Counted from the stretch's first letter, positions 31,516-50,911 are shown. The stretch is DNA of 64,000 nt from Candidatus Latescibacterota bacterium (GCA_965222605.1 OZ244960.1:3424001-3488000), one strand, 5' to 3'. Notes: generated from the sequence alone by a model not told the origin. A program made the numbers and translations.

Positions 31516-31633
31516 TGCATCCTGCTGTATGCAGTGCATCCCATCGGATGCATCTTACTTATCTTTATATAAATCAGGTATTTATTTGTATTTCACTTAA
31601 ATAAGCGGTTATAAGTGCATCCTGGCGGATGCA
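31516..31633. promoter_or_regulatory. Three palindromic TGCATCC-N4-GGATGCA sites (candidate enhancer/UAS for a sigma54 activator)
   Basis: 31516-31533 (1 mismatch), 31535-31552 and 31616-31633 (perfect), ~110-230 bp upstream of the -24/-12 promoter. Confidence 0.7.
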
Positions 31634-31743
31634 CTTGCGCCAGAATCTCGCAGGTGTAGCACAAATAATTCTTAATTTTTATCTCTTTGTTTTTCAAGCA
31701 CTTGAAGACATTCAAGGGCTTTTTTTTTGTACCGAATGGTTTT

Positions 31744-31758
31744 TGGCACGCATTTTGC
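31744..31758 (+). promoter_or_regulatory. Sigma54 (-24/-12) promoter
   Basis: TGGCACG-CATT-TTGC, an exact match to TGGCACG-N4-TTGC, facing the large surface-protein gene. Confidence 0.8.
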
Positions 31759-31969
31759 GACATTTGCGACATGGAAATCCTATTGACCACGGCCTCATCT
31801 CGCATACCTGAAAAATCACCAGGTACAGCAAGCGTGTGAATTGTGTGAAAAGAGGTTCTTGACAAAGAGCATTGAATTATGCAGATTAGTTCCCAAATTA
31901 AAACAAACGTATGTTTGATCTGTTTTTCATCAATTCCACCCTCGATCTTTCATGAAAGGAAAGGTAAAG

Positions 31970-34900
31970 ATGGTTCGTACAGAAACTTCCGTTTTCACCG
32001 TTGATGGTTCGACCACGCATCCTGATTGCAGCACCATGAGCACTGACCGTTGCCTGAACACAAGCCGCCGGACTGACCCCTCTCCCGCCACCGACCAGGG
32101 CCGTCATTGGCTCCCTGGACGCCTTGCCTGCTACATGCTTGCCGTACTCGCCGCGCTGTCAATCCTGCCAGCGGCAGCGCAGGACCAGGACACCACCGCC
32201 CCGGAACTGAGGTCCGTATCGATCAACAGAATACTACTGAGGCTGACCTACGACGAGGAACTGGACGATGATTCGGAGCCAGATATTTCGGCGTTCACGG
32301 TCACTGTCAACGGTGCTTCCCGAGAAGTGAGGACGGTTGTCGTAATCAGAACATTTGTGTTGGTGTTTCTCTACTCACCAGTGCAGGCTGGCGAGACTGT
32401 GACCGTGTCCTATACGGTACCCGCGACCAACCCGGTCCAGGACCTATCGGGAAATCGGGCCGCGGCCATTACCAACCTGCCTGTAAGCAACAACACTCCG
32501 GCGACTGCTCCACCCGCGCCAACGAACCTCACCGCACAGGCCGGCGACAGATCGGTAGCACTGACCTGGACCACGCCAGGCAACGGTGGCAGCGCCATCA
32601 CCAGGCATCAATACCGCGAAAAAGTGGAATCGGGTGCATTCGGCAACTGGATGAACATCTCCAACAGTGCCGAAGGCCAAGCCAACGCCAACAGCTACAC
32701 CGTCTCGGACCTGACCAACGGCATCACCTACACCTTCGAGGTACGCGCGGTGAACGCACAAGGCGAAAGCGCCGAGTCCAATGAGGACAGTGCCAGGCCA
32801 GCCGCAACCGTCACCTCAACCATCCCGCCTGCACCGACGAACCTCACCGCGCAGGCCGGCGACGCTCAGGTAACACTAACCTGGACCACGCCGGGCAACG
32901 GCGGCAGCACCATCACCAGGCATCAATACCGCGAAAAAGTGGGGACGAGTTTGTTCGGCAACTGGATGAACATCTCCAACAGTGCCGAAGGCCAAGCCAA
33001 TGCCAACAGCTACACCGTCTCGGACCTGACCAACGGCATCACCTACACCTTCGAGGTGCGCGCTGCAAACGCACAAGGCGCAAGCACCGAGTCCAATGAA
33101 GACAGTGCCAGGCCAGCCACAGTACCCGACGCGCCGACCAACCTCACCGCGCAGGCCGGCGACGCTCAGGTAACACTGACCTGGACCACGCCGGGCAACG
33201 GTGGCAGCACCATCACCAAACACCAATACCGCGAAAAGATAGAATCGGGTGAGTTCGGCAACTGGATGAACATCCCCAACAGTGCCGAGGGCCAAGCCAA
33301 CGCCAACAGCTACACCGTCCCAAACAGAACCAACGGCATCACCTACACCTACCAGGTACGTGCTGTAAACGCACAAGGCGAAAGCACCGAGTCTAATGAG
33401 GACAGTGCCAGGCCAACAGCAACCGTCACCTCGACCGCCCCACCTGCGCCAACGAACCTCACGGCACAGGCTGGCGACAGATCGGTAACACTAACCTGGA
33501 CCACGCCGGGCAACGGCGGCAGTTCCATCACCAAACACCAATACCGCGAAAAAGTGGGGACAGGTGAGTTTGGCAACTGGACTAACATCCCCAACAGCAC
33601 CGAAGGTCAGACCAACGCCAACAGCTACACCGTCCCAAATAGAACCAACGGCACCACTTACACCTACAAGGTGCGCGCTGCAAACGCACAAGGCGCAAGC
33701 ACCGAGTCCAATGAAGACAGTGCCAGGCCAGCCACAGTACCCGACGCGCCGACCAACCTCACCGCGCAGGCCGGCGACGCTCAGGTAACACTGACCTGGA
33801 CCACGCCGGGCAACGGTGGCAGCACCATCACCAAACACCAATACCGCGAAAAGATAGAATCGGGTGAGTTCGGCAACTGGATGAACATCCCCAACAGTGC
33901 CGAGGGCCAAGCCAACGCCAACAGCTACACCGTCCCAAACAGAACCAACGGCATCACCTACACCTACCAGGTACGTGCTGTAAACGCACAAGGCGAAAGC
34001 ACCGAGTCTAATGAGGACAGTGCCAGGCCAACAGCAACCGTCACCTCGACCGCCCCACCTGCGCCAACGAACCTCACGGCACAGGCTGGCGACAGATCGG
34101 TAACACTAACCTGGACCACGCCGGGCAACGGCGGCAGTTCCATCACCAAACACCAATACCGCGAAAAAGTGGGGACAGGTGAGTTTGGCAACTGGACTAA
34201 CATCCCCAACAGCACCGAAGGTCAGACCAACGCCAACAGCTACACCGTCCCAAATAGAACCAACGGCACCACTTACACCTACAAGGTGCGCGCTGCAAAC
34301 GCACAAGGCGAAAGCACCGAGTCTAATGAGGACAGTGCCAGGCCAACAGCAACCGTTACCTCAACTGTCCCCCCTGCGCCAACGAACCTCACGGCACAGG
34401 CTGGCGACAGATCGGTAACACTAACCTGGACCACGCCGGGCAACGGCGGCAGTTCCATCACCAGGCATCAATACCGCGAAAAGATAGAATCGGGTGAGTT
34501 CGGCAACTGGATGAACATCCCCAACAGTGCCGAAGGCCAAGCCAACGCCAACAGCTACACCGTCCCAAACAGAACCAACGGCATCACCTACACCTTCGAG
34601 GTGCGTGCGGTGAACGCACAAGGCGAAAGCACCGAGTCCAATGAAGACAGTGCCAGGCCAGCCACAGTACCCGACGCGCCGACCAACCTCACCGCGCAGG
34701 CAGGTAACGCTCAGGTAACACTAACCTGGACCACACCGGGCAATGGCGGCAGTTCCATCACCAGGCATCAATACCGCGAAAAGATAGAATCGGGTGAGTT
34801 CGGCAACTGGATGAACATCCCCAACAGTGCCGAAGGCCAAGCCAACGCCAACAGCTACACCGTCCCAAACAGAACCAACGGCATCACTTACACCTACAAG

Positions 34901-37846
34901 GTACGCGCGGTGAACGCACAAGGCCAAAGCACAGAGTCCAATCAAGCCAGTGCTAGGCCGATCTTATCATCTTATCCCCCACTGAGCGTCTCACCAATAG
35001 CGTATAAAACTGTCGAACAGGGCAAACTAATTACCCCGATTCATTTATCAGCATCCGGAGGTTGGGAACCCTATACGTATTCCATATCTGGCGCACCAAC
35101 GGGTATCTCTTTATCAAGTGGTAATCGCATCACAGGCAGGCCCTCACAGAGTGGAACTTTCACAATTACTGTAACCGTGACCGATGTGCGTGGTAGTACT
35201 GGAGAGCATAGTTTCAGGATGAGTGTTTATTCGAAAGAGCTTACTAAAAAATTTTCTCCAATTTTGATTTTGACAGAACATCCAAGTAGAGAGGACCGCA
35301 AAGTGATCTTTCCCGAACCCGTGGAAATCATGGGTGCAGAATCTGTTTCTAATCTTAAGTTTCGTATTAACAACGTCCTGGGACAAGAATTATCTGATAG
35401 TTTTTATTCCGCCTTAACTTCATCTTGGCGTGATTATTTTAATAGTATTTACCAGAATACCATTAATAATTCTATTAATCTTTCAGAGAATAAATTTGCC
35501 TTCTTACCTGCGGCGTTAAGATATCAGGGAAGGCCACCGGGACTTGCAGATGGTATCTATTTTGTGCTTGCATATTTTGACTATCCTGGCGAACTGGAAA
35601 CAGGTGAAAATAGCTGGTATGATTATTATACTGGTACTACTGATCCTCCTCACCCTCAAGCCGGAGCTAATTTTGGCAACACAGCATACGTGCATATTTT
35701 TGATAAAGGTGATGGTAATGTCGTCATACAGTATTATTACTTTTATCCCTTTAATGATTTTCAAAATAACCACGAAGGGGATTGGCCACGCATTAATGTT
35801 ATTGTGGACTCCTTTGATCCAGATGACGCAGAACTCGTTGGAATTGACTACACATTTCATGGCAAGGGTCTAACCTATACCAGTACTGACGATAGGATTT
35901 TCAACCCTCAGACACGTTTTGTTGCACCAGCTGAAGGCGGAACGCATCCAGTTGTATATGTTGGAGCAGGTTCCCACGGTGGTTATCCTACCGGAGGTAA
36001 TTATCCGGATCCCGGTGGTGAAATAGCAGGGATAGGTTATGATGAAGATATGACAACGGATGGGCTTGTTCTGAATACTCAGGTCGAGGACACGCGGCGT
36101 GATGTTGCACAATCTTATGATTTAATATTTCTGCCCAATCCCGATCCAAATCAACCCAATATGGGTTTGTCACCAGAAATGAGTTGGTTGGGTACTACAG
36201 CACTATGGGGAACACCACGCGTTGATTCACCCGGTGATGGGCCATACGCCCAGTTTATAAGGGAAATACTAGATTTGATCCCGGGCACCTTATTTGACTT
36301 ACCCCGCGACTTAAATAAAGCAGCTCTAGGACCGGTTTATAGTGGCTGGAACACATCGGGAGCGAGTGGTTACGATAAGGTTAATGTACCTTATACCGAG
36401 TTTCAACAATTTCCAATCGTACAAAACGTTACATGGAGTGGCACAATAAAGCTGATTGGTGATATTGTTGTCTATCCCGGCGCAACTCTGACAATTGACG
36501 CTGGCACGACGATCAGAGCCGCTCCCAATCGAGATATTCACGGCATTATAGATGCAAATCACGTCGATATTATCAACTATGGAAAGATACGCGCCAATGG
36601 GACAAGCTTGCAACCCATTGTATTTCGTTCCGACACTTTGATTGCCTCGGCAGGAGACTGGTATGGCATCAGGAATCACGGCGATTTGACTATGAGCCAT
36701 TGCACGATTCAACATGCAGTGGTTGGTCTGGATTTGCAAGGGACGCAGACCTTGACGGATATGACATTGAATACCAATACCTATAACACCCCTCTAACAA
36801 TCACAGCAATAGAGGATGTTACAGCGACTCAAAATGGGGCGATTACAGATATACCGGTGAGTGCATCAGGAGGGTGGGAACCCTATACGTATTCCACATC
36901 TGAATTACCTTCAGGTATCGTTCTTGATCAAAATCAAAACAGGGTTTTCATCACTGGCACACCAACAGCGACTGCCTACTCTGACATTACAGTGACCGTG
37001 CGAGATGCTGTAAATGACGAGGCATCGACATCGTTTAACCTGTTTGTTTCTGCGGTTACTCAGCCCTTGAGTATCGAGTCAATAGCGGATGTGATAGCCA
37101 CTCAGGATGTCGCAATTACCCCCATACAGGTAGTAGCGTCAGGCGGTAGCGGGGCATATACGTATTCGATAGAGAGCAACCCTGAAGGTTTAATAGCGAG
37201 CGATCCTGACGAAGATCCTGGTCTTTCTATCGATTCGAATGGCCGCATCACAGGCGCACCCCCAGTGAGTGGGGATTTCAGGATCACGGTGACCGTGGAA
37301 GATGCCCCTCTTGGCCGTGCTCCCCCCACACAGGAAAGTCACTATTTCTCCATGACGGTCAATGCACCCACACACGTTACGCCGCCGCTGACAATCGTAG
37401 AGATAGATGATATAGCGATCAAGATCAGTGGTGTACAGACGAACAGCCCGATTACGCCTATTCAGGTCTCAGCATCAGGCGGACAAACGCCTTATACTTA
37501 TTCCATGTCCAGCAACCCTGCCACTGGTTCTGGTCTGTCCATCAATGCGAGCAACGGACAGATCACAGGCACGCCAACACAGAGAGGCACTTTCACACTG
37601 ACCGTGACTGTAACGGATAATGCAAGTACGACTGCAACTGAAAGTTTCTCAATGGCTGTCCGTCTGATAGGTGACTTTAATGGTGATGGTGTGGTCAATT
37701 TATCAGATCATTTACTTTTTTTAGAAGTGTTTGGTCTAACCGAAGATGACGATGGTTTTAATGCAGAGATGGATTTGAATGGCGATGGAACCATTGGTAT
37801 TCCCGATTTTCTGATCTTTGTAGATAACTTTGGCTCTTCTGCATAG
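31970..37846 (+). CDS. Large secreted/surface protein: SwmB-like, 8x fibronectin III, Ig-like, Vps62/NPP1-like domain, short beta-helix, 3x Ig-like, dockerin-like double EF-hand
   Basis: Signal peptide MLAVLAALSILPAAA; PTNLTAQAG..W..Y..YTFEVRAVN repeats; QYYYFYPFN..HEGDW..HPVVYVGAGSHGGY; SASGG..PYTYS..ITGTP; GDFNGDGVVN..DLNGDGTI..DF. Start uncertain (31952/31970/32135). Confidence 0.88.
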   Translation: MVRTETSVFTVDGSTTHPDCSTMSTDRCLNTSRRTDPSPATDQGRHWLPGRLACYMLAVLAALSILPAAAQDQDTTAPELRSVSINRILLRLTYDEELDDDSEPDISAFTVTVNGASREVRTVVVIRTFVLVFLYSPVQAGETVTVSYTVPATNPVQDLSGNRAAAITNLPVSNNTPATAPPAPTNLTAQAGDRSVALTWTTPGNGGSAITRHQYREKVESGAFGNWMNISNSAEGQANANSYTVSDLTNGITYTFEVRAVNAQGESAESNEDSARPAATVTSTIPPAPTNLTAQAGDAQVTLTWTTPGNGGSTITRHQYREKVGTSLFGNWMNISNSAEGQANANSYTVSDLTNGITYTFEVRAANAQGASTESNEDSARPATVPDAPTNLTAQAGDAQVTLTWTTPGNGGSTITKHQYREKIESGEFGNWMNIPNSAEGQANANSYTVPNRTNGITYTYQVRAVNAQGESTESNEDSARPTATVTSTAPPAPTNLTAQAGDRSVTLTWTTPGNGGSSITKHQYREKVGTGEFGNWTNIPNSTEGQTNANSYTVPNRTNGTTYTYKVRAANAQGASTESNEDSARPATVPDAPTNLTAQAGDAQVTLTWTTPGNGGSTITKHQYREKIESGEFGNWMNIPNSAEGQANANSYTVPNRTNGITYTYQVRAVNAQGESTESNEDSARPTATVTSTAPPAPTNLTAQAGDRSVTLTWTTPGNGGSSITKHQYREKVGTGEFGNWTNIPNSTEGQTNANSYTVPNRTNGTTYTYKVRAANAQGESTESNEDSARPTATVTSTVPPAPTNLTAQAGDRSVTLTWTTPGNGGSSITRHQYREKIESGEFGNWMNIPNSAEGQANANSYTVPNRTNGITYTFEVRAVNAQGESTESNEDSARPATVPDAPTNLTAQAGNAQVTLTWTTPGNGGSSITRHQYREKIESGEFGNWMNIPNSAEGQANANSYTVPNRTNGITYTYKVRAVNAQGQSTESNQASARPILSSYPPLSVSPIAYKTVEQGKLITPIHLSASGGWEPYTYSISGAPTGISLSSGNRITGRPSQSGTFTITVTVTDVRGSTGEHSFRMSVYSKELTKKFSPILILTEHPSREDRKVIFPEPVEIMGAESVSNLKFRINNVLGQELSDSFYSALTSSWRDYFNSIYQNTINNSINLSENKFAFLPAALRYQGRPPGLADGIYFVLAYFDYPGELETGENSWYDYYTGTTDPPHPQAGANFGNTAYVHIFDKGDGNVVIQYYYFYPFNDFQNNHEGDWPRINVIVDSFDPDDAELVGIDYTFHGKGLTYTSTDDRIFNPQTRFVAPAEGGTHPVVYVGAGSHGGYPTGGNYPDPGGEIAGIGYDEDMTTDGLVLNTQVEDTRRDVAQSYDLIFLPNPDPNQPNMGLSPEMSWLGTTALWGTPRVDSPGDGPYAQFIREILDLIPGTLFDLPRDLNKAALGPVYSGWNTSGASGYDKVNVPYTEFQQFPIVQNVTWSGTIKLIGDIVVYPGATLTIDAGTTIRAAPNRDIHGIIDANHVDIINYGKIRANGTSLQPIVFRSDTLIASAGDWYGIRNHGDLTMSHCTIQHAVVGLDLQGTQTLTDMTLNTNTYNTPLTITAIEDVTATQNGAITDIPVSASGGWEPYTYSTSELPSGIVLDQNQNRVFITGTPTATAYSDITVTVRDAVNDEASTSFNLFVSAVTQPLSIESIADVIATQDVAITPIQVVASGGSGAYTYSIESNPEGLIASDPDEDPGLSIDSNGRITGAPPVSGDFRITVTVEDAPLGRAPPTQESHYFSMTVNAPTHVTPPLTIVEIDDIAIKISGVQTNSPITPIQVSASGGQTPYTYSMSSNPATGSGLSINASNGQITGTPTQRGTFTLTVTVTDNASTTATESFSMAVRLIGDFNGDGVVNLSDHLLFLEVFGLTEDDDGFNAEMDLNGDGTIGIPDFLIFVDNFGSSA
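32500..34960 (+). repeat. Eight tandem FN3-coding repeats (300/315 bp units)
   Basis: Near-identical DNA units; repeats 3-4 and 5-6 form an apparently exact 615-bp duplication. Confidence 0.93.
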
Positions 37847-37889
37847 TTTTTTAGTGCAAGAGACCTCTCTTTGTCAGGAGGAATACATC

Positions 37890-38687
37890 ATGACACATAT
37901 AGCAGCAATCATTCTGATTTTAGGTCTCTGTCTGCCCCAGGCTCTGATGGCAGGGGAGGTCCTTGAAGCCGGTGAGATTGACAGCAGCAAGGTAAAAGTC
38001 GGTGCCTATGCCGAGATCATCTATGGGACGGGTGAGCGGGATCAAGTCTCAGGGAAGTGGGAGAAACTAGATACCGCACAAGGATATATTAAAGCCGTTG
38101 ATGCAGAGAGTTTGACTATTGGACGCGGTCTTTGGAAGGAGCAAATAGCTTTTGAGCGCATACAAAAGCTGATCCTTGCAGAGTCTGGTCGTGAAATAGA
38201 CAGGCTTAAAAAGACAACTGATTCGCTTTCTGTGAGAAAAGAGAATGGGAACTCGCGAATGATCAAAAAGTTGGGCTGCGGTGCTCTTGCTGGGTTCTTA
38301 TCCGGCATTGTGGGGACCGCAATCGTTACAGCGATAGGTGACTGCCGATCTGAAAATCTAGGATGTTTTGTTGCACCAATTGCAATCGGTGGAGGGATTG
38401 GCTGGGTAGTCGGTGTGCCCGTCGGCGTGAGCTTATGTGATCCACATGATCGATTTACCTATTCATTGGCAGGCAGCCTGATAGGAAGTACAGTAAGTCT
38501 TGCGGTGCTCAAGATAGACGAAAAGACCGCACAAAACCTCTGGCAAGCCCTTGTTATCAGTCCCCTTATTGGCGCGGTGATCATGTCCGAGTTGTTCCGA
38601 AAACCGTTAGAGAACCGTCGTGTCTCTATCGGTCTGCTACCCGGTCCCAAAGGACGAGTATCCGCTGTTGCCACACTTCGATTTTGA
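37890..38687 (+). CDS. Array family A protein 1 (signal peptide, Sm/SH3-like domain, Gly-rich hydrophobic helices, C-terminal beta-hairpin-Phe)
   Basis: AGGAGG RBS; MTHIAAIILILGLCLPQAL; ends RRVSIGLLPGPKGRVSAVATLRF. Confidence 0.85.
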   Translation: MTHIAAIILILGLCLPQALMAGEVLEAGEIDSSKVKVGAYAEIIYGTGERDQVSGKWEKLDTAQGYIKAVDAESLTIGRGLWKEQIAFERIQKLILAESGREIDRLKKTTDSLSVRKENGNSRMIKKLGCGALAGFLSGIVGTAIVTAIGDCRSENLGCFVAPIAIGGGIGWVVGVPVGVSLCDPHDRFTYSLAGSLIGSTVSLAVLKIDEKTAQNLWQALVISPLIGAVIMSELFRKPLENRRVSIGLLPGPKGRVSAVATLRF

Positions 38688-39565: not shown

Positions 39566-40378
39566 ATGACACATATAGCAGCAATCATTCTGATTTTGGG
39601 TCTATGTCTGCCACAGGCTCTGTTGGCAGGGGAGGTCTTTCAAGCCGGTGAGATTGACAGCAGCAAGGTTGAAGTCGGTGCCTATGCCGAAGTTATCTAT
39701 GGGACGGGAGAGCGGGATCAAGTCTCAGGGGAGTGGAAGAAACAGGAGGAGGCACAAGAATATATTAAAGCTGTTGATCAAGGAAGTTTGACCATTAGCC
39801 AGGGTTTGGGGAAGCGGATAGCCTTTGAGCGCATACAACAACTGATCCTTGCAGAATCATCTTTCGCAATGGACAGACTAAAAAAGACAATAGATACGCT
39901 TTTTGTGATAGAGACGACAGAGACGCCTTCTATGAGAATGGAGTACATGCCTGGGCGAATTGTTAGCAAGTTGGTCGGTGGCGTTCTTTGCGGAGGCCTT
40001 TTCGGATTTGTGGGGGGCCTGGTCACCGGGAAGGTGTCTTGCAAAAAATCCGACTCTGGAGAGATATGCGGCCTCCTAGCTTTCGTGGTTGGTGGGACAA
40101 TTGGCTATACAGTCGGCGTGCCCTTCGGCGTAAGCGTGCTTGATCCGCATGATCAATTCATGTATTCATTTGCAGGTAGCCTGATAGGAGGCGCAGCAGG
40201 CATTGCACTGACCCGCGCCGAAGAAGAGCTCTGGCCCTCCCTTCTTATCTGCCCACTTGTCGGAGCTACCATTCTGTCTGAGCTTACACGCAAACCGCCA
40301 GAGGCTCGTCGTGTCTCCATCGGTCTGCTACCCGGTCCCAAAGGCAGAGTATCCGCTGTTGCCACGCTTCGATTTTAA
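39566..40378 (+). CDS. Array family A protein 2
   Basis: Same conserved termini, divergent helical core. Confidence 0.85.
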   Translation: MTHIAAIILILGLCLPQALLAGEVFQAGEIDSSKVEVGAYAEVIYGTGERDQVSGEWKKQEEAQEYIKAVDQGSLTISQGLGKRIAFERIQQLILAESSFAMDRLKKTIDTLFVIETTETPSMRMEYMPGRIVSKLVGGVLCGGLFGFVGGLVTGKVSCKKSDSGEICGLLAFVVGGTIGYTVGVPFGVSVLDPHDQFMYSFAGSLIGGAAGIALTRAEEELWPSLLICPLVGATILSELTRKPPEARRVSIGLLPGPKGRVSAVATLRF

Positions 40379-40390
40379 GTAGCTACCAAT

Positions 40391-41496: not shown

Positions 41497-42078
41497 ATGA
41501 GACATATAGCAGCAATCGTACTGATTTTGGGATTCTGTCTGCCCCAGGCTCTGTTGGCAGGGGAGGTCCTTCAAGTCGGTGAGATTGACAGGCTTAAAGA
41601 GACAACTGATACGCTTTCTGTAAAAAAAGAGAACAAATCCAGACGGATTGTTGGCAAGTTGGCAGGTGGTGTCCTGGGGGGAACACTTTTCGCCCTTGCG
41701 GGGGGCGCAGCCAGTGCAGCGATCAGTGACTGTACAGAGGACGAGACATTTTGTAAATTAGGAGATAGTTTAATTGGTGGATGGGTTGGCTATCTCGTCG
41801 GCGTACCCATAGGCATTAACCGAATGGATCCATACGATCAATTTAAGTATTCATTGGCAGGTAGCCTGATGGGAGGTGCTGCAAGTCTTGCGGTGTTCAC
41901 GATGGTGGAAGACGAGACAGCGGAAAACCTCTGGCCAGCCCTTGTTATCTGCCCTCTTGTTGGCGCGGCGATCATGTCCGAGTTTTTTCGAAAACCGTTA
42001 GAGAATCGTCGTGTCTCTATCGGTCTGCTACCCGGTCCCAAAGGAAGAATATCCGCTGTTGCCACGCTTCGATTTTAA
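41497..42078 (+). CDS. Array family A protein 3 (Sm-like domain deleted in frame)
   Basis: GEID fused directly to RLKE; conserved termini. Confidence 0.8.
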   Translation: MRHIAAIVLILGFCLPQALLAGEVLQVGEIDRLKETTDTLSVKKENKSRRIVGKLAGGVLGGTLFALAGGAASAAISDCTEDETFCKLGDSLIGGWVGYLVGVPIGINRMDPYDQFKYSLAGSLMGGAASLAVFTMVEDETAENLWPALVICPLVGAAIMSEFFRKPLENRRVSIGLLPGPKGRISAVATLRF

Positions 42079-42148: not shown

Positions 42149-42942
42149 CTGGCGCACCTTCAGCGAGTGGAAATTTCACGATCACAGTGACCGTGGAAGA
42201 TGCCCCTGGCCGTGATTTACCCACACAGGTAAGTCGCTCTTTCTCCATGACGGTCAATGCACCCACACACGTTACGCCGCCGCTGACAATCGCAGAGATA
42301 GATGATATAGCGATCAAGATCAGTGGTGTACAGACGAACAGCCCGATTACGCCTATTCAGGTCTCAGCATCAGGCGGACAAACGCCTTATACTTATTCCA
42401 TGTCCAGCAACCCTGCCACTGGTTCTGGTCTGTCCATCAATGCGAGCAACGGACAGATCACAGGCACGCCAACACAAAGAGGCACTTTCACACTGACTGT
42501 GACTGTAACGGATAATGCAAGTACGACTGCAACTGAAAGTTTCTCAATGGCTGTCCGTCTGATAGGTGACTTTAATGGTGATGGTGTGGTCAATATATCA
42601 GATCATTTACTTTTTTTAGAAGTGTTTGGTCTAACAACACTTCGGACAGTTTTTAGGTGTAGAGGTTCTTTGAAATCAACAGGTTAGATGAGGCCCCATG
42701 TTTTATTTGCAACTTAGACCTATACCTTGAGTTTAATAAAAAAACAGATAATTCTGTAACCTTTTGTATTATAGAGACTTAGGATTTTTTGAATAATTGA
42801 AGACCGATCAAAAAGTGTCCGAACCATTGGTCTAACCGAAGATGACGATGGTTTTAATGCTGAGATGGATTTGAATGGCGATGGAACCATTGGTATTCCC
42901 GATTTTCTGATCTTTGTAAGTCACTTTGGCTCCTCTGCATAG
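42149..42942 (+). pseudogene. Orphan tail cassette 3, interrupted by a MITE
   Basis: Tail homology resumes exactly after the 195-bp insertion. Confidence 0.82.
42635..42829. mobile_element. MITE / non-autonomous IS derivative (195 bp)
   Basis: Imperfect TIRs CAACACTTCGGACAGTTTTT and CAATGGTTCGGACACTTTTT (reverse complement); GTCTAA duplicated at 42629-42634 and 42830-42835; the empty site is seen in sister repeats. Confidence 0.85.
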
Positions 42943-42985: not shown

Positions 42986-43807
42986 ATGACACATCTAACT
43001 ACAATCGTTCTGCTTTTGGGTCTCTGTCTGCCCCAGGCTCTGATAGCAGGGGAGATCCTTGAAGCCGGTGAGATTGACAGCAGCAAGGTAAAAGTCGGTG
43101 CCTATGCCGAGATCATCTATGGGACGGGTGAGCGGGATCAAGTCTCAAGGGAGTGGAAGAAACTGGACACGGCACAAGGATATATTAAAGCTGTTGATCA
43201 AGAGAGTTTGACGATTGGACGCGGTCTTTGGAAAGAGCAGATCGCTTTCGAGCGTATTCAAAAGCTGATCCTTGCAAGGTCTGACCGCGAAATAGACAGG
43301 CTTAAAAAGATGACGGATACGCTTTCTGTAATAGATAACAGACGACAAGGACAAAATAGTACAGGCGGAGGACGGATTACCAAAAAGTTGGCGGGCGGCG
43401 TTCTTGCAGGATTTCTATTCGGCATGGCGGGAGGCACAGCAGCAGCAGCGATCACTGACTGCAAAAAGGACGAGACATTCTGTGAATTAGGAAATTTTGT
43501 AACTGGTGGGTGGTATGGCTATGTCGTCGGCGTACCCATAGGCATGAACCGAATGGATCCATACGATCAATTTAAGTTTTCATTGGCAGGCAGCCTGATT
43601 GGAGGTGCTGCAAGTCTTGTGGTGTTCAAGATAGTGGAAAATGAAACAGCAGAAGAACTCTGGCCAGTCCTTTTTATCAGTCCCCTTGTCGGAGCTACAA
43701 TTATGTCCGAGTTGTTTCGAAAACCGTTAGAGAACCGTCGTGTCTCTATCGGTCTGCTACCCGGTCCCAAAGGAAGAGTATCCGCTGTTGCCACACTTCG
43801 ATTTTGA
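42986..43807 (+). CDS. Array family A protein 4
   Basis: AGGAGG RBS, conserved termini. Confidence 0.85.
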   Translation: MTHLTTIVLLLGLCLPQALIAGEILEAGEIDSSKVKVGAYAEIIYGTGERDQVSREWKKLDTAQGYIKAVDQESLTIGRGLWKEQIAFERIQKLILARSDREIDRLKKMTDTLSVIDNRRQGQNSTGGGRITKKLAGGVLAGFLFGMAGGTAAAAITDCKKDETFCELGNFVTGGWYGYVVGVPIGMNRMDPYDQFKFSLAGSLIGGAASLVVFKIVENETAEELWPVLFISPLVGATIMSELFRKPLENRRVSIGLLPGPKGRVSAVATLRF

Positions 43808-43820
43808 AGAAGCTACTAAT

Positions 43821-44602
43821 ACCTGTCTGTTTCTGCGGCTACCCAGCCCTTGAGTATCGCGACAATAGCGGATGTGATAGCCACTCAGGATGTGGCAATT
43901 ACCCCCATACAGGTAGTGGCTTCAGGTGGTGGCGGGTCCTATACGTATTCGATAGCGAGCGACCCTTCCACAGGCTCTGGCCTTTCTATCGATTCGAATG
44001 GTCGCATCACGGGCAGACCCACAGCGAGTGGAAATTTCACGATCACAGTGACCGTGGAAGATGCCCCTGGCCGTGATTTACCCACACAGGTAAGTCGCTC
44101 TTTCTCCATGACGGTCAATGCACCCACACACGTTACGCCGCCGCTGACAATCGCAGAGATAAATGATATAACAGTCAAGATAAGTGGCGTGCAGACAAAT
44201 AGCCCCATTACTCCTATTCAGGTCTCAGCATCAGGAGGACAAACACCTTATGCCTATTCCATATCCAGCAATCCAGCCACAGGTTCTGGTCTGTCCATCA
44301 ATGCGAGCAACGGACAGATCACAGGCACGCCAACACAAAGAGGCACTTTCACACTTACTGTGACTGTAACGGATAATGCAAGTACGACGGCAACTGAAAG
44401 GTTCTCCATGGCTGTCAGTCTGATAGGTGACTTTAATGGTGATGGTGTGGTCAATATATCAGATCATTTACTTTTTTTAGAAGTGTTTGGTCTAACCGAA
44501 GATGACGATGGTTTTAATGCTGAGATGGATTTGAATGGCGATGGAACCATTGGTATTCCCGATTTTCTGATCTTTGTAAGTCACTTTGGCTCCTCTGCAT
44601 AG
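43821..44602 (+). pseudogene. Orphan tail cassette 4
   Basis: Tail homolog, headless. Confidence 0.8.
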
Positions 44603-44645
44603 TTTTTTTAGTGCAGGAGACAGATCTTTACCAGGAGGAATCATC

Positions 44646-45437
44646 ATGACACATCTAACTACAATCGTTCTGATCTTGGGTCTCTGTCTGCCACAGGCTC
44701 TGTTGGCAGGGGAGGTCCTTCAAGCCGGTGAGATTGACAGCAGCAAGGTTGAAGTCGGTGCCTATGCCGAGGTCATCTATGGGACGGGTGAGCGGGATCA
44801 AGTCTCAGGGAAGTGGGAGAAACTGGATACCGCACAAGGATATGTTAAAGCTGTTGATGCAGAGAGTCTGACCATTAGCCAGGGTTTGGGGAAGCGGATA
44901 GCCTTTGAGCGCATACAACAACTGATCCTTACAGAATCATCTTTCCAAATGGACAGGCTTAAAAAGACAACTGATACGCTTTCTGAAAAAAAAGAGAACA
45001 AACCCAATAGAATTGTCGGCAAGTTGGCAAGTGGTGTCCTGGGGGGGACACTTTCCGGCCTTGCGGGGGGCTTAGTCGGAATAAATGTCGGTGACTGCTC
45101 AGAGAAAGAAAGATTTTGTGAAGAAGAACATTTTGTAATTGGTGGATGGATTGGCTATCTCGTCGGCGTGCCCGCTGGCATGAGCGCATTTGATTCATGC
45201 GATCAATTTAAGTATTCATTGGCAGGTAGCCTGATCGGAGGTGCTGCAAGTCTTGTGATATTCACAGATGAAGAGACCCTGGAAGACTTATGGCCAGCCC
45301 TTTTTATTTCTCCCTTTGTCGGCGCAGCGATCATGTCCGAGTTTTCCCGAAAATTGCCAGAGGGTCGTCGTGTCTCCATCGGCCTGCTACCCGGTCCCAA
45401 AGGCAGAGTATCCGCTATTGCCACGCTTCGATTTTGA
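44646..45437 (+). CDS. Array family A protein 5
   Basis: AGGAGG RBS, conserved termini. Confidence 0.85.
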   Translation: MTHLTTIVLILGLCLPQALLAGEVLQAGEIDSSKVEVGAYAEVIYGTGERDQVSGKWEKLDTAQGYVKAVDAESLTISQGLGKRIAFERIQQLILTESSFQMDRLKKTTDTLSEKKENKPNRIVGKLASGVLGGTLSGLAGGLVGINVGDCSEKERFCEEEHFVIGGWIGYLVGVPAGMSAFDSCDQFKYSLAGSLIGGAASLVIFTDEETLEDLWPALFISPFVGAAIMSEFSRKLPEGRRVSIGLLPGPKGRVSAIATLRF

Positions 45438-45508
45438 GTTAGCTACCGGTGTATTTATCTCAAGGGGAACGAGCCTGTAACCCCGTAACCTGAACCATGT
45501 TTGAACTG

Positions 45509-46115
45509 CTGGCGCACACCTTCAGCGAGTGGAAATTTCACGATCACAGTGACCGTGGAAGATGCCCCTGGCCGTGATTTACCCACACAGGTAAGTCGCT
45601 CTTTCTCCATGACGGTCAATGCACCCACACACGTTACGCCGCCGCTGACAATCGCAGAGATAAATGATATAACAGTCAAGATAAGTGGCGTGCAGACGAA
45701 CAGCCCGATTACGCCTATTCAGGTCTCAGCATCAGGCGGACAAACACCTTATGCCTATTCCATATCCAGCAATCCAGCCACAGGTTCTGGTCTGTCCATC
45801 AATGCGAGCAACGGACAGATCACAGGCACGCCAACACAAAGAGGCACTTTCACACTAACTGTGACTGTAACGGATAATGCAAGTACGACTGCAACTGAAA
45901 GGTTCTCAATGGCTGTCAGTCTGATAGGTGACTTTAATGGTGATGGTGTGGTCAATTTATCAGATCATTTACTTTTTTTAGAAGTGTTTGGTCTAACCGA
46001 AGATGACGATGGTTTTAATGCCGAAATGGATCTGAATGACGATGGAACCATTGATGTTGCCGATTTTCTGATCTTTGTAAGTCACTACCCTGGCACCGCT
46101 ACTCGGTTTTTTTAG
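45509..46115 (+). pseudogene. Orphan tail cassette 5 (ends YPGTATRFF)
   Basis: Tail homolog, headless. Confidence 0.8.
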
Positions 46116-46183
46116 TGCAGGAGACAGCTTTTTGACTTTTGAGCGGAATCAATGAGATACATTTGTTTCAAAAGGAGAAACAC

Positions 46184-47278
46184 ATGAAAAAATTAGCTGC
46201 TGTCTTTGTAACCGCGACCCTCTTCCTCAACGCGATGGCTCCTACACTCGCGTATGCAGCCACATACCTGCGAGGCAAAGAGGTCAATGCCAACACGCTC
46301 ATTCAAGATGCTTATGTTGCTGTCACCTATTTCGACAGCAAAAATAAACGGATATTAGACAAGGGCTGGATTGATGCGATTGGCGAGACCACATTTCGGA
46401 TTCGATTCAGAGCACTTTTTGGCAAGAAGACGATTGCTTACGACAAAGTGCTGTCAGTGATCATGAGCGAAGAAGCAACCACACGAGGCAAGCAAATCAA
46501 TGAGGTGGATCGGTTTATTCGAGACATGAAAAAACAAGAGGCAAAAGCATTAGAGACAGAGCAAGCTGCTATCCAACGGCTCAATCAAAAGACCGTCACA
46601 ATCATGCCACGCGGACAGGTTGACCCGTCAGAGATCACAAAGGGATGGTATGCCCATATCGTCTATACATCTCAGGGGGCCACAGGAAAAGCTACCAGCC
46701 AAATTGCGGACAAGGACTCAAGCCGTATTGCCCTCAAACATGGGTTTGATACCCAGAACATAGTTTATGATCATATTGATACCCTCATTGTCGCCAAACA
46801 CCTGCGAGAGATTGAGCAATATCGAGAAACCGGTGCGAAATACAATGCCCGGGTGCGTGTATATGCCCCGTCCATTCAGAAAGGACAGATGGTTGGCAAG
46901 CTCATTAAAATGCTGCAAGACACACTCATTATCCAGAAAGGGCGTAGCTTTTATCAGGTGCCTGTTTCATCAATCTCTAAATTCGACGTCAGTATCAAAC
47001 AATATAGAAATACAAGCAAAGGATTGAAAATCGGTCTTGCTGCTGGGGCTGGTGTAGCTATCCTGATAAATATTCCCGATTCGAGTGGCGATTTGCAAGG
47101 ATTGGCTGAATTATTAGCCACTGTGATAATCGTACCACCAATTGTAGTTATCTCCACTCTGATTGGTGCAATAACAAAATCAGACAAATGGGTCGAAGTG
47201 TCTCCCCAACGCCTCAACTTGAGCCTTGCACCCACATCCAGCAAAGGGCTTCACGCTGCACTCACCTTCAACTTTTAG
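46184..47278 (+). CDS. Array family B protein 1 (signal peptide, ~3 small beta domains, hydrophobic hairpin, C-terminal beta-hairpin-Phe)
   Basis: AAGGAG RBS; MKKLAAVFVTATLFLNAMAPTLAYA; ends RLNLSLAPTSSKGLHAALTFNF. Confidence 0.85.
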   Translation: MKKLAAVFVTATLFLNAMAPTLAYAATYLRGKEVNANTLIQDAYVAVTYFDSKNKRILDKGWIDAIGETTFRIRFRALFGKKTIAYDKVLSVIMSEEATTRGKQINEVDRFIRDMKKQEAKALETEQAAIQRLNQKTVTIMPRGQVDPSEITKGWYAHIVYTSQGATGKATSQIADKDSSRIALKHGFDTQNIVYDHIDTLIVAKHLREIEQYRETGAKYNARVRVYAPSIQKGQMVGKLIKMLQDTLIIQKGRSFYQVPVSSISKFDVSIKQYRNTSKGLKIGLAAGAGVAILINIPDSSGDLQGLAELLATVIIVPPIVVISTLIGAITKSDKWVEVSPQRLNLSLAPTSSKGLHAALTFNF

Positions 47279-47313
47279 GGATGTAAATGATTCAAATGTA
47301 GAGTCGAAGTGCG

Positions 47314-47808: not shown

Positions 47809-47884
47809 TTTTTTAGTACAGGAGATAGCTCATTGACTTTTGAGCGGAATCAATGAGGTATATTTATCTCAAAAGGAGAACCGC

Positions 47885-48970
47885 ATGAAAAAATTAGCTG
47901 CTGTCTTTGTAACCGCGACCCTCTTCCTCAACGCGATGGCTCCTACACTCGCGTATGCAGCCACATACCTGCGAGGCAAAGAGGTCAATGCCAACACGCT
48001 CATTCAAGATGCTTATGTTGCTGTCACCTATTTCGACAGCAAAAATAAACGGATATTAGACAAGGGCTGGATTGATGCGATTGACGAGACTTCGTTTACC
48101 ATTCGGAATGGTCTGTGGGGGAAAAAGACGATTGCTTATACCAAAATCTTGTCACTGGTTATGAGCGAAGAAGCAACCACGTTAAGGCAAATGAATGAGG
48201 TAAATCGGTGGTTTAGTGGAAATATGGCAGAAAGAGGACCAGAGACAGAGCAAGCCGCTATCCAACGGCTCAATCAAAAGACCGTCACAATCAGGCCACG
48301 CGGACAGATTGAACCGGCAGAGATCACAAAGGGATGGTATGCTCACGTCGTCTATACATCTCAAAGAGCCACTGGAAAAGCCATTAGTCGAATTGCCGAT
48401 AAAGACACCAGCCACATCGCACTCAAATATGGGTTTGATACCCATAACATAGCTTATGCTGACATTGATACCCTCATTGTCGCCAAACACAGACGAGATA
48501 TCGAGAGATATCGAGAGACTGGAGCCAAATACAATGCCCGAGTGCGTGTGTATGCCCCGTCAATTCAGAAGGGACAAATGGTTGGCAATTTCGTTAACAT
48601 GATGCAAGACACGCTCGTTATTCAAAGAGGACGTAGCTTTTTTCAGGTGCCTGTTTCTTCAATCTCTACATTCGACATCAGCATCAAACAGTACAGAAAC
48701 ACAGGCAAAGGCTTGATAATTGGGCTTGCTGCCGGGGCTGGTATGGCTATCCTGATAAATTTTCCCACGGATGAGGTACCCGATTTGCAAGGATTAGTTC
48801 AAGTATACGCCACTATGATAATCGTACCCTCAATTGTAGTTATCTCCACTCTGATCGGTGCAATGAAGAAATCCGACAAATGGGTCGAAGTGTCTCCCCA
48901 ACGCCTCAACCTGAGCCTTGTACCCACATCCGGTAAAGGACTTCTCGCCGCGCTCACATTCAATTTCTAA
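47885..48970 (+). CDS. Array family B protein 2
   Basis: Paralog of 46184-47278 with an identical N-terminus. Confidence 0.85.
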   Translation: MKKLAAVFVTATLFLNAMAPTLAYAATYLRGKEVNANTLIQDAYVAVTYFDSKNKRILDKGWIDAIDETSFTIRNGLWGKKTIAYTKILSLVMSEEATTLRQMNEVNRWFSGNMAERGPETEQAAIQRLNQKTVTIRPRGQIEPAEITKGWYAHVVYTSQRATGKAISRIADKDTSHIALKYGFDTHNIAYADIDTLIVAKHRRDIERYRETGAKYNARVRVYAPSIQKGQMVGNFVNMMQDTLVIQRGRSFFQVPVSSISTFDISIKQYRNTGKGLIIGLAAGAGMAILINFPTDEVPDLQGLVQVYATMIIVPSIVVISTLIGAMKKSDKWVEVSPQRLNLSLVPTSGKGLLAALTFNF

Positions 48971-48981
48971 TCAATTTCTAA

Positions 48982-49596
48982 TCTATCGATTCGAATGGCC
49001 GCATCACTGGCGCACCCACACTGAGTGGAGATTTCACGATCAGAGTGACCGTGGAAGATGCCCCTCCTGTCCGTGCTCCCTCCACACAAGTAAGTCGCTC
49101 TTTCTTCATGACGGTCAATGCACCTACAACTCCGACACTGACAATCGCAGAGATAGATGATATAACCGTCAAAATCAGTGGTGTGCAGACGAACAGCCCC
49201 ATTACCCCTATTCAGGTCTCAGCATCAGGAGGACAAACGCCATACTCCTATTCCCTGTCCAGCAACCCTGCCACAGGTTCTGGTCTGTCCATCAATGCAA
49301 CCAATGGTCAAATCACTGGCACACCCACACAGGCAGGCTCTTTTACACTAACCGTGAGTGTAACGGATAATGCAAGTACGACTGCAACTGAAAGTTTCTC
49401 AATGGCTGTCAGTCTGATAGGTGACTTTAATGGTGATGGTGTGGTCAATATATCAGATCATTTACTTTTTTTAGAAGTGTTTGGTCTAACCGAAGATGAC
49501 GATGGTTTTAATGCTGAGATGGATTTGAATGGCGATGGAACCATTGGCACGCCCGATTTTCTGATCTTTGTAAGTCACTTTGGCTCCTCTGCATAG
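48982..49596 (+). pseudogene. Orphan tail cassette 7
   Basis: Tail homolog, preceded by an 11-bp tandem duplication CAATTTCTAAT (48961-48982). Confidence 0.8.
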
Positions 49597-49640
49597 CTTT
49601 TTTCGTGCAGGAGACCTCTCTTTGTCAAGAGGAATACATC

Positions 49641-50417
49641 ATGACACATATAGCAGCAATCATTCTAATTTTGGGTCTCTGTCTGCCCCAGGCTCTGATA
49701 GCAGAGGAGGTCCTTCAAGCCGGTGAGATTGACAACAGCAAGGTTGAAGTCGGTGCCTATGCCGAAGTCATCTATGGGACGGGTGAGAAACTATCTACGG
49801 CACGCGGCTACGTTCAGGCTGTTGATGCAGAGAGTTTGACCATTGGACGCGGTTTTTGGAAGGAGCAGATAGCTTTTGAGCGCATACAAAAGCTGATCCT
49901 TGCAGAGTCTGACCGCGAAATAGACAGGCTTCAAGAGGCGACCGATACCCTTTCTGTAATAGATAACAGACGACAAGGCCGAAATAGTACAGGCGGAAGA
50001 CGGATTGCCAAAAAATTGGCAGGCGGTGTTCTTGGAGGGATCCTGTTTGGTATGACAGTGGGCCTGACTGGTGCGGCGATCGTTGACTGCCCAGAGAACG
50101 TTTCATTCTGTGAAATAGAAAACTTTTTTAGTCTTGGATGGTATGGCTATGTCGTTGGCTTACCCGTTGGCATGAACCGAATGGATCCACACGACCGATT
50201 TATCTATTCATTGGCAGGTAGCCTGATCGGAGGTGCAGCAAGTCTTGCACTAACAGATTCCAAAGACGAGTTCTGGACTCTTATTATCTGCCCCCTCGTT
50301 GGCACTGCAATTATGTCCGAGTTTTTTCGAAAACCGCCAGAGAATCGTCGAGTCTCCATCGGTCTGCTACCCGGTCCCAAAGGCAGAGTATCCGCTGTTG
50401 CTACACTTCGATTTTGA
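49641..50417 (+). CDS. Array family A protein 6
   Basis: Conserved termini. Confidence 0.85.
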   Translation: MTHIAAIILILGLCLPQALIAEEVLQAGEIDNSKVEVGAYAEVIYGTGEKLSTARGYVQAVDAESLTIGRGFWKEQIAFERIQKLILAESDREIDRLQEATDTLSVIDNRRQGRNSTGGRRIAKKLAGGVLGGILFGMTVGLTGAAIVDCPENVSFCEIENFFSLGWYGYVVGLPVGMNRMDPHDRFIYSLAGSLIGGAASLALTDSKDEFWTLIICPLVGTAIMSEFFRKPPENRRVSIGLLPGPKGRVSAVATLRF

Positions 50418-50430
50418 AGAAGCTACTAAT

Positions 50431-50726
50431 ACCTGTCTGTTTCTGCGGTTACTCAGCTCTTGAGAATCGAGCCAATAGCAGATGTGATAGCCACTCAGGA
50501 TGTGGCAATTGAAAGTTTCTCAATGACTGTCCGTCTGATAGCCGATTTTAATGGTGATGGTGTGGTCAATTCGTCAGATTATGCACTTTTTTATGCCGTG
50601 TTTGGTCTATCGGAAGGTGATGATGGTTTTAATATCGATATGGATCTGAATGGCAATGGAACCATTGATACCCCCGATTATCTGATCTTTGTAAGTCACT
50701 TTGGCTCTGCTGCCCGGTTTTTTTAG
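50431..50726 (+). pseudogene. Orphan tail cassette 8 (internally deleted, essentially dockerin only)
   Basis: QDVAI fused to ESFSM at a GCAA(T/C)T microhomology. Confidence 0.78.
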
Positions 50727-50791
50727 TGCAGGAGACAACGCTTTATCAGGAGGAATCAATGAGGTACATTTCTTTCAAAAGGGAGAAACTC

Positions 50792-50911
50792 ATGAAAAAA
50801 TTAACCGTTACCTTTGTAACCGCGACTCTCCTGCTCAACGCGATGGCTCCCTCACTCGCACATGCAGCCACATACCTGCAAGGCGCACAGGTCAATTATT
50901 TTATTTTGTAG
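50792..50911 (+). pseudogene. Truncated family B gene (signal peptide only)
   Basis: MKKLTVTFVTATLLLNAMAPSLAHAATYLQG then a stop; right edge of the array. Confidence 0.75.

Follow-up and report, generated by a model that had tools for sequence, protein, structure and literature searches.

Headless dockerin-coding tails alternate with predicted membrane-protein genes in a Latescibacterota genome: a probable gene-family expansion by recombination

We analysed a 64,000-nt stretch of a Candidatus Latescibacterota genome (the window), in which a giant surface-protein gene, P, is followed by eight 5'-truncated copies of its own 3' end (t1 to t8, Ig-Ig-dockerin) interleaved with genes of two kinds, A and B. 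Judged from sequence, this array is probably a gene-family expansion built by recombination, an "accordion", rather than a dedicated cassette machine (probability about 0.6). A new dedicated cassette system had been proposed in the preliminary description of the locus, which our analysis did not bear out: the A/B genes are of conserved types and often stand without a tail, and the substitutions private to t1 to t8 look neutral.

Organisation of the array

Re-mapping the array confirmed the order, strand and coordinates given previously. The gene order on the + strand is P-A1-t-A2-t-A3-t-A4-t-A5-t-B1-t-B2-t-A6-t-B3', with the following features (positions in the window).

31952-37846, +: P, giant surface-protein gene heading the array
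37592-37621, +: candidate sigma-70-like motif (TTCACA-18-GATAAT), located in P's final Ig unit
37847-37889, +: leader, from the P stop to the A1 start; AGGAGG 11 nt before the ATG
37890-38687, +: A1, 265 aa
38688-39497, +: t1, headless Ig-Ig-dockerin tail, junction class I; 90.4% identity to P over 752 nt
39566-40378, +: A2, type common to second-array a2 (92% aa identity)
40379-41454, +: t2, headless tail of junction class I, with one Ig unit extra (3 Ig + dockerin)
41497-42078, +: A3, short A gene, 193 aa, without the SH3-like N-domain
about 42151-42939, +: t3, headless tail, junction class II, dockerin-coding part split by an insert
42636-42826, strand not assigned: 191-nt MITE-like repeat element in t3, flanked by 10-nt direct repeats
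42986-43807, +: A4, A gene
43820-44602, +: t4, headless tail, junction class I; 91.1% identity to P over 771 nt
44646-45437, +: A5, nearest to second-array a1 (80% aa identity)
45489-46115, +: t5, headless tail, joined as in t3 (junction class II)
46184-47278, +: B1, 364 aa
47302-47808, +: t6, last Ig + dockerin, junction class III; 86.1% identity to P over 397 nt
47885-48970, +: B2, dS 0.31 relative to the G017 B gene
48982-49596, +: t7, headless tail, junction class IV; same join in species G017
49641-50417, +: A6, 86% aa identity and dS 0.36 against the single A gene at the G017 syntenic locus
50430-50726, +: t8, shortest tail, junction class I; a 5' stub + dockerin, the Ig units being deleted
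50792-50911, +: B3', B gene cut off after 39 codons; end of the array

P encodes a secreted protein of 1964 aa with an SWM repeat, eight FN3 units, He_PIG Ig domains, a 532-aa central part, further Ig domains and a C-terminal dockerin-like domain. Pfam searches found fn3 in eight stretches (E 1.5e-84) and He_PIG in four, and the central part (35204-36799, 532 aa) had no match in Pfam or PDB. The Dockerin_1 score of P, 21.5 bits, is slightly below the cut-off of 22.9, and t1 and t8 reached 26.3 and 30.9 bits. The t copies, which match He_PIG and Dockerin_1 in Pfam, are 84-96% identical in DNA to the P tail over 225-800 aligned bases.

Reused junctions and mosaic tails

The 14 junctions between an A/B stop and the next element fell into five classes, 13 of them leading onto a tail and one onto a nearly deleted tail. 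Class I comprises five copies and class III four, in each case over both arrays of this genome, and t6 is preceded by about 120 nt of B 3' flank. Class IV is common to this genome and G017, having survived a species split of dS about 0.35. Such persistence is long for useless bacterial DNA.

The tail alignment held 149 polymorphic sites in 658 columns, scattered along the tail. The longest runs of shared polymorphic sites among the P tail and the t copies were assessed by permutation (2000 permutations): P and t3 shared a run of 37 sites, P and t2 one of 38 (at the 3' end of t2), and t3 and t4 one of 51, with 0 of 2000 permutations giving runs as long, and p was <0.06 in 19 of the 21 tail pairs. 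These results indicated mosaicism between the P tail and the t copies (permutation p<0.0005). The earlier claim that the t copies recombine is thus upheld.

Homogenisation extends from the tail into the next gene. Over five units, DNA identity was 87-97% in the block that begins with the last Ig and reaches 180 nt into A, dropped to 53-61% in mid-A and recovered to 93% over the final 60 nt of the gene, and the highest identity of the whole unit (97%) lay in the untranslated dockerin part. Within A, dS was 0.19-0.28 at the 5' end and 0.6-0.97 in the centre, and codons 241-270, the last window, gave 0.36.

The A and B genes

A1 combines a signal peptide with an SH3-like N-domain, has four hydrophobic segments rich in glycine and ends in ...ATLRF; B1 has a signal peptide, a pair of divergent SH3-like units, two hydrophobic segments and the C-terminus ...LTFNF. 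All signal peptides were called by visual inspection. No Pfam family was above cut-off for A1, and A/B gave no cohesin match. A and B thus appear to form an uncharacterised paralogous family with a predicted signal peptide, SH3-like domain and glycine-rich membrane segments. From windowed dN/dS values of 0.19-0.70, the A/B sequences are under purifying selection.

These genes had been called hypervariable, which overstates their variation: the A copies inside the array are 62-78% identical, with conserved, homogenised ends, and the central types reappear in the second array (A2 as a2, A6 as a4 at 83% aa identity), A5 being nearest to a1. They had also been credited with a ribosome-binding site and signal peptide each; a Shine-Dalgarno sequence, defined as a 5-of-6 match to AGGAGG, was found for 8 of the 9 genes, and the signal peptides are those seen by eye.

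Translation and constraint in the tail copies

No such 5-of-6 match lies upstream of any of the 83 in-frame ATG, GTG or TTG codons in the eight t frames, and the t copies have no signal peptide. A dockerin requires export. Of the earlier statement that the tails lack ribosome-binding site, ATG and signal peptide, the first and last parts therefore stand, and ATG codons from P are in fact present.

The substitutions private to one of t1 to t8 comprised 23 synonymous and 51 non-synonymous changes, close to the ratio of about 1 to 2.6 expected under neutrality, and so look neutral. Tails of the second array were less neutral, with 31 synonymous and 35 non-synonymous private changes. Pairwise dN/dS among the t copies was 0.2-0.5 and not 1, which may reflect variation imported from translated tails, although weak selection fits equally; t7 against its G017 counterpart gave 0.45, and full-length tails 0.24. 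In all 13 headless copies of this genome the homologous part is an open frame (98-391 codons), and indels between t copies are multiples of three. These intact frames are not decisive, because only about 2.9 stop-creating private changes were expected (none was found, P value about 0.055). All mapped t copies retain at least the dockerin-coding 200 nt, and the dockerin part could have a role at the DNA or RNA level. The best reading is that the t copies are putative untranslated relics carrying the leader of the next gene.

Inserted elements and neighbouring genes

The MITE-like element in t3 is flanked by the 10-nt target duplication TTGGTCTAAC and has three further copies in the genome (83-92% identity); an IS630-like element is inserted in a t of G014. 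Two transposases lie near the array, 12 kb upstream and 7 kb downstream. Among the 33 ORFs scanned in the window outside the array, there was no integrase, reverse transcriptase or invertase, which bears out the earlier remark on the first two, and no CdiB, T6SS or T7SS gene. The locus also yielded no recombinase, initiating element or tRNA and no match to a known RNA family. Differences between P and the t copies fell at adenine positions in 124 of 444 cases, matching base composition, with no adenine-specific template/variable excess beyond it. Neither result, the absence of such enzymes from the 33 ORFs scanned or the lack of an adenine bias, favours diversification of the integron, DGR or shufflon kind.

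A second array and related genomes

A second array of the same build lies in this genome at C1:778470-793420, bringing the headless tails to 13 over the two arrays. Of the 21 genomes of the genus, 10 contained tail matches (E<=1e-35), 35 in all; 22 of these fell in open frames <400 aa, in seven genomes, one of the 22 being the tail of a frameshifted full-length P. Headless tails were thus found in 7 of the 21 genomes, mapping revealed P-(A/B)-t layouts in G014, G017 (two loci), G019 and G003, and P and A are adjacent at seven loci in six genomes. In the 24 stretches analysed, 62 of 98 A/B gene starts lack a dockerin-coding end in the 400 nt before them. A/B-family genes also come directly after genes for unrelated LRR and WD40 proteins with a dockerin end.

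Array length and order vary among related species, in agreement with the earlier view that recombination adds, deletes and reorders units. The syntenic locus of G017 has only P-A-B and a tail stub, between flanking genes of 92-97% aa identity, and dS against G017 is 0.31-0.36 for A6, B2 and the flanking TPR gene alike. The full-length P of G014 has a three-Ig tail as in t2, and the ...PGTAARFF ending of t1 and t5 occurs in P genes of G014 and G017.

Proposed origin of the array

As comparison among loci shows, the starting point was a conserved pair or trio P-A(-B), in which P is a secreted FN3/Ig protein with a dockerin-like end and A and B are paralogous predicted membrane proteins with one or two SH3-like domains. 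The junctions suggest that a few illegitimate joins then linked an A/B 3' flank to an internal point of the P tail, producing a direct repeat of tail end, leader and A/B gene. Unequal crossing-over and gene conversion subsequently copied, deleted and reshuffled these units, as the mosaics, reused junctions and copy-number differences show, homogenising the block from the last Ig through dockerin and leader to the first 180 nt of the next gene and leaving the A/B centres as old, distinct types. The t copies, apparently untranslated, meanwhile gather near-neutral substitutions, 5' deletions and mobile-element insertions. They may persist because recombination remakes them and because the t 3' end and spacer form the sole upstream sequence of each A/B gene, supplying leader, ribosome-binding site and perhaps promoter. 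As a net effect, lineages differ in how many A/B paralogs stand behind P and in what order, and the P tail is a patchwork shared with relics.

Alternative explanations

A selected recombination-cassette system would use the t copies as homology arms and as an archive of P tails (two or three Ig units, two C-terminal endings), so that P x t exchange changes the P tail or the A/B partner behind P and gives population heterogeneity. Such a system would account for the mosaic of the P tail with t2 and t3, the tail forms shared with full-length P of G014 and G017, the open frames and in-frame indels, the recurrence of the architecture in a third of the genomes (7/21) with one junction class that predates speciation, and the conserved arms on both sides of divergent A/B cores. 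We nevertheless regard it as unlikely, since t diversity is small, scattered and without loop focus, the private changes of t1 to t8 look neutral, two t copies (t3 and the one in G014) are broken by inserts, no recombinase or initiating element was found at the locus, and so many A/B starts have no tail; crossing-over between direct repeats, moreover, mainly deletes or duplicates units and gives no reversible switch. Translation of the t copies, as small Ig-dockerin proteins from odd starts or as A-t fusions by readthrough or frameshift, would fit the 13 of 13 open frames, the pairwise dN/dS <1 and the in-frame position of t1 and u2 behind the preceding A stop. It is very improbable given the lack of Shine-Dalgarno matches and signal peptides, the neutral-looking private changes, and the tolerance of an inserted element (t3) and an internal deletion; the frame relative to the upstream stop also varies, only two of the five class I junctions (t1 and u2) being open in frame, with a second stop in t4 and t8 and t2 in another frame.

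Orphan cdiA-CT/cdiI, rhs-CT/rhsI and mafB-CT modules are promoterless 5'-truncated 3' copies behind a full-length gene, each with a small gene; variable toxins form the tips of these fragments, and the small genes encode the cognate immunity proteins. The array resembles them in its full gene followed by 5'-truncated fragments, each before a small gene, and in homology that permits recombination, and an effector/immunity stockpile of this kind, with A/B as effector or immunity proteins, had been among the roles suggested earlier. That role was not supported and appears highly improbable: Pfam found no toxin domain in the P tail, t or A/B, the tips are conserved Ig-dockerin modules (84-96%), no CdiB, T6SS or T7SS gene is among the 33 flanking ORFs scanned, and A/B are one paralogous family of conserved types, with signal peptides, SH3-like domains and membrane segments, that also occurs fragment-free. 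An assembly artefact, with dispersed paralogs stitched together, has to be considered in that repeats of 0.3-1.1 kb at 84-96% identity assemble poorly and public unitigs, at 700 nt or less, do not suffice to fix the order; their joints look like those of paralogous arrays. It is extremely improbable, as the genome is a single 6.34-Mb contig, the copies and junctions are distinct and allow unique placement, and the same build stands at the second locus and in the single-contig genomes G014, G017 and G019. In run X1, 349 of 479 unitigs were at least 99% identical, 30 of 30 bins were covered and no joint was listed, which is not independent support because X1 may be the source sample.

Comparison with known systems

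With ordinary tandem segmental duplication and concerted evolution by unequal crossing-over, the array shares few reused junctions, varying copy number and homogenised flanks; each copy carries a partial gene because the repeat unit spans a gene boundary. Its scale and persistence are unusual: one genome carries 13 relics in two arrays, and one junction predates a speciation. The silent cassettes of pilE/pilS, vlsE/vls and msp2/p44 are contiguous and highly variable in defined regions. Like them, the array has untranslated 5'-truncated copies with open frames and mosaic, segmental exchange with the expressed gene; in contrast to pilS and vls, its cassettes alternate with expressed genes, vary little and diffusely without high localised diversity, and have neutral-looking private changes.

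A dockerin-like domain occurs in P and 106 other open frames of this genome, at the extreme C-terminus in 52 of the 107, and some cohesin-domain frames lie elsewhere in the genome, as in cohesin-dockerin systems of the cellulosome type; the genes adjoining P, however, have no cohesin match. One could imagine that dockerin-coding end, leader and A/B gene form a recombination-portable module, with A/B as a new class of membrane receptor that would hold dockerin-ended surface proteins by its SH3-like domain; headless tails would then be kept to reshuffle the anchor made with P and, via dockerin homology, with other dockerin-ended proteins. This idea, which we consider quite unlikely, is hinted at because A/B genes follow LRR and WD40 dockerin proteins, P-A pairs recur at seven loci and the tails keep the dockerin part.

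Candidate signals upstream of the A and B genes

The leader between the P stop and the A1 start recurs 3' of every t copy. The candidate motif TTCACA-18-GATAAT is repeated at the same spot in t1 to t7, about 270 nt before each downstream start; sigma-70-like motifs were not enriched over the region (31 observed, 24.8 +/- 4.9 in shuffles), and one t of G014 has no such motif, yet an intact A gene comes next. A weak hairpin spans the stop codon at the P/A1 leader (-7 kcal/mol), two of its pairs showing compensatory changes.

The array and the gene at its head

We found the array on the + strand exactly in the gene order given in the preliminary description: downstream of P, a giant secreted FN3/Ig/dockerin-like gene, stand nine paralogous membrane-protein genes of two related kinds (A1-A6; B1, B2 and the truncated B3'), and one headless copy of the 3' end of P (t1-t8) separates each neighbouring pair.

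Features of the array and its counterparts in the same genome (G000, contig C1); positions without prefix are window coordinates
31952-37846, + strand: P, 1964 codons, head of the array
42636-42826, 191 nt: MITE-like element inside t3, which it splits
C1:778470-793420, outside the window: second array, P2-a1-u1-a2-u2-Bx-a3-u3-B-u4-B-u5-a4 (P2, giant gene; a, Bx and B, A/B genes; u, tails)
C1:4585000-4609700, outside the window: third cluster of A/B-family genes

By Pfam, P contains a single SWM repeat, eight FN3 units and He_PIG Ig domains, and at its C-terminus Dockerin_1 scores slightly below the cut-off; the central 532 residues had no match in Pfam or PDB. A Vps62-type resemblance of this central part was unsupported by either database. 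Two 300-nt stretches of the FN3 region (33131-33430 and 33746-34045) are 100% identical, and this sequence identity points to a very recent duplication or conversion within P.

The array as assembled lies in a genome that is a single 6.34-Mb contig, and the t copies differ enough for unique placement. Public unitigs of run X1, which may be the source sample, covered all bins, with 349 of 479 at an identity of at least 99%, and at no more than 700 nt these unitigs are too short to confirm order. Joints in the short unitigs of runs X3, X5 and X10 are indistinguishable from paralogous arrays or other organisms. Stronger support for a real array than the unitigs is its recurrence in a second array and in relatives, which, together with the single contig and the uniquely placeable copies, argues against an assembly artefact.

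Recurrence in the same genome and genus

P2 is a 1191-codon frame with one FN3 unit, behind which A/B genes alternate with five headless tails, one A gene being fused into the following tail. Among the 21 genomes of the genus, close tail matches occurred in 10, and 22 of the 35 matches lay in open frames of <400 codons spread over 7 genomes, one of the 22 being the tail of a G017 P that is full-length but frameshifted. We mapped P-A-t..., P-B-t-B and P-B-t-A-B layouts in G014, G017, G019 and G003. The adjacency of P and A/B genes, for which a check in related genomes had been proposed, recurred as P-A at 7 loci in 6 genomes.

The G017 locus with shared flanking genes (92-97% amino acid identity) carries no more than P-A-B plus a tail stub cut at its 3' end. 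Synonymous divergence (dS) from G017 was 0.31-0.36 for A6, B2 and the flanking TPR gene alike, and A6 and B2 therefore behave as orthologs. The ancestral form would be a short P-A-B locus, as in syntenic G017. There the P-A-B block lies on the opposite side of the TPR gene relative to G000, and P itself (L026 12683-17154, minus strand) is in two frames, split at the first tail Ig by either a frameshift or a sequencing error.

Record of recombination

The 14 places at which an A/B stop joins the next unit fell into five sequence classes. Both arrays have class I (A1, A2, A4, A6 and a2) and class III (B1, Bx and a further two B genes from the second array), and class IV (B2) is common to G000 and G017. 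Consecutive polymorphic sites are shared in runs of 37-51 by the pairs P-t3, P-t2 and t3-t4; no run was as long in 2000 permutations, and the permutation test gave p<0.06 in 19 of 21 pairs. Across five units, DNA identity was 87-97% from the last Ig onward (dockerin 97%, leader 89%), 91-94% in the first 180 nt of A, 53-61% in mid-A and 93% in the last 60 nt, a pattern that synonymous divergence along A repeated.

Windowed dN/dS in A was 0.19-0.70. Amino acid identity across the arrays reached 92% for A2-a2, 83% for A6-a4 and 80% for A5-a1, and neighbouring A copies within the window's array are 62-78% identical. On these sequence comparisons the downstream genes are not hypervariable, as described earlier: the divergent cores of A are old types that recur in the second array rather than fresh variation. 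Unequal crossing-over and gene conversion would build and remodel such an array and leave the t copies as relics, with a few joins made first and homologous exchange between repeats following, still ongoing.

Probable decay and possible function of the t copies

P and the t copies share 84-96% DNA identity over 225-800 aligned bases. Pfam detected He_PIG (1-3 units) and Dockerin_1 in them, the latter above cut-off in t1 and t8. Their 5' starting point within the tail varies, all reach the tail end, and from there a 43-nt leader continues to the next start codon. None of the 83 candidate starts in the t frames had an upstream Shine-Dalgarno match, which bears out the earlier statement that the copies lack a ribosome-binding site. 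The companion statement that every A/B gene has its own held for eight of the nine, with an AGGAGG-like site 8-11 nt upstream of the start, and failed for one. As frames are not conserved, readthrough of the A stop codon into t was rejected.

Several tails are altered. The 191-nt element in t3 is bordered by a 10-nt direct repeat (target duplication), has imperfect terminal inverted repeats and occurs in three further copies in G000, one immediately behind an A-like gene in the third cluster. One additional Ig unit is present in t2, Ig units are lost from t8, a t of G014 contains an IS630-like element, and in the second array the t behind Bx is deleted nearly to the ribosome-binding site. Substitutions private to t1-t8 numbered 23 synonymous vs 51 non-synonymous (neutral expectation ~1 to 2.6), and dN/dS was 0.45 between t7 and its G017 counterpart vs 0.24 for full-length tails. 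The t copies thus behave as relics.

Other observations count against a view of the copies as nothing but relics. The 13 headless copies of G000 all keep an open frame throughout their homologous length, and the indels that distinguish copies preserve the frame; only ~2.9 stop-creating private changes were expected in the t copies, and the absence of any therefore has P ~0.055. Private changes in the second array were more conservative (31 synonymous vs 35 non-synonymous). Pairwise dN/dS among t copies was 0.2-0.5, a low value that could reflect conversion importing variation from translated tails or, equally, weak selection. One junction class outlived a speciation, at least the dockerin-coding 200 nt are kept in every mapped tail, and P and t1-t7 have a sigma-70-like motif in a matching position. 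Sigma-70-like motifs showed no enrichment in the region, and a G014 tail without the motif still precedes an intact A. We therefore infer that the 3' part of each t is probably the leader of the next gene and perhaps its promoter. A weak hairpin (-7 kcal/mol) lies over the stop codon of P (37835-37868) and over that of each t, and another small helix covers part of the Shine-Dalgarno site; compensatory changes occurred in only 2 of 14 pairs.

Comparison with known systems

The array showed every tested feature of tandem segmental duplication with concerted evolution. We give a probability of about 0.6 to a recombination-driven array, expanded and contracted by crossing-over, in which untranslated tail relics double as homology and leader. 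The locus offers a clean, large case of crossing-over and conversion remodelling surface-associated genes in an uncultured lineage, its history readable from junction classes, mosaics and relics. No account of an array like this turned up in the literature searched on dockerins.

The preliminary description had proposed a new cassette system, which finds partial support: the mosaic runs do show that the t copies recombine. A selected role in tail or partner switching is unlikely. Truncated silent copies and mosaic exchange are shared with pilS/vls-type systems, which store localised diversity, whereas the array does not. Orphan toxin/immunity modules have the same layout, but we found no toxin domain or immunity-like partner here and no export genes among the 33 ORFs of the window outside the array, and the tips are conserved, which speaks against the suggested effector/immunity stockpile; the orphan-module layout alone does not indicate a polymorphic-toxin or antigenic-variation system. 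The small share of probability left falls jointly to a toxin-like stockpile, translated t copies and an assembly artefact. As the preliminary description had it, neither integrase nor reverse transcriptase was found among these 33 ORFs; no Rfam family or tRNA was found in or beside the array, and a DGR-like adenine bias was rejected.

The A/B family

What makes the locus interesting is above all the uncharacterised A/B family, together with its connection to dockerin-ended proteins. The A proteins (~265 aa) begin with a hydrophobic, signal-like segment, followed by a conserved ~80-residue domain, a variable linker, four glycine-rich hydrophobic segments, the first loop of which has a pair of Cys residues, and an invariant-looking C-terminal hairpin ending ...ATLRF. 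The B proteins (~364 aa) carry the N-domain twice, in divergent copies, along with two hydrophobic segments, and end in ...LTFNF. Pfam gave no family above threshold for A or B and only sub-threshold membrane or glycine-zipper matches for 49 aligned A members, and no meaningful relative emerged when the A family was searched as a profile against the PDB. An Atlas model of the homologue P0012 (82% identical) gave weak leads, all below the tool's bars: SH3-like RimP/BPL_C for the N-part, glycine-zipper or GlsB-like membrane proteins for the C-part. Of 247 homologs in a big protein database, one had a precomputed Pfam domain (a sub-family match) and two were named, both 'hypothetical protein' labelled Gemmatimonadota; no A relatives were found among the JGI metagenome contigs scanned.

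G000 has only three A/B family loci, the two arrays and the third cluster. There the same SH3-like N-domain continues into beta-rich C-terminal parts whose last residue is F. Genes for PorV/FadL-like outer-membrane proteins of 300-340 aa stand in alternation with these genes, and dockerin-ended LRR and WD40 proteins, which are unrelated, precede them. Dockerin-like domains occur in 107 open frames of G000, at the extreme C-terminus in 52, and only a handful of cohesin matches were found, elsewhere in the genome. A/B genes adjoin dockerin-ended giant proteins, and one hypothesis is that their SH3-like domain binds dockerin; if the A/B proteins were indeed dockerin receptors, the question of a non-cellulosomal dockerin role in such bacteria would open.

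Other features of the window

A nucleotidyltransferase/HEPN pair (toxin-antitoxin-like module; 50999-51746) lies directly behind the truncated last array gene. Three paralogous DUF6785/DUF6784 genes are present (5838-7898, 51864-53672 and 55706-57682), the last adjoined by an IS66-family transposase (57777-59243), as are two sets of a TonB-dependent-receptor-like gene, a no-family gene and a PorV/UPF0164-like gene (8126-14581 and 59384-63970). A MazF/MazE pair, a DDE transposase and an AbiEi-like antitoxin gene (15400-16100 and 18815-20592) suggest a mobile-element-rich neighbourhood.
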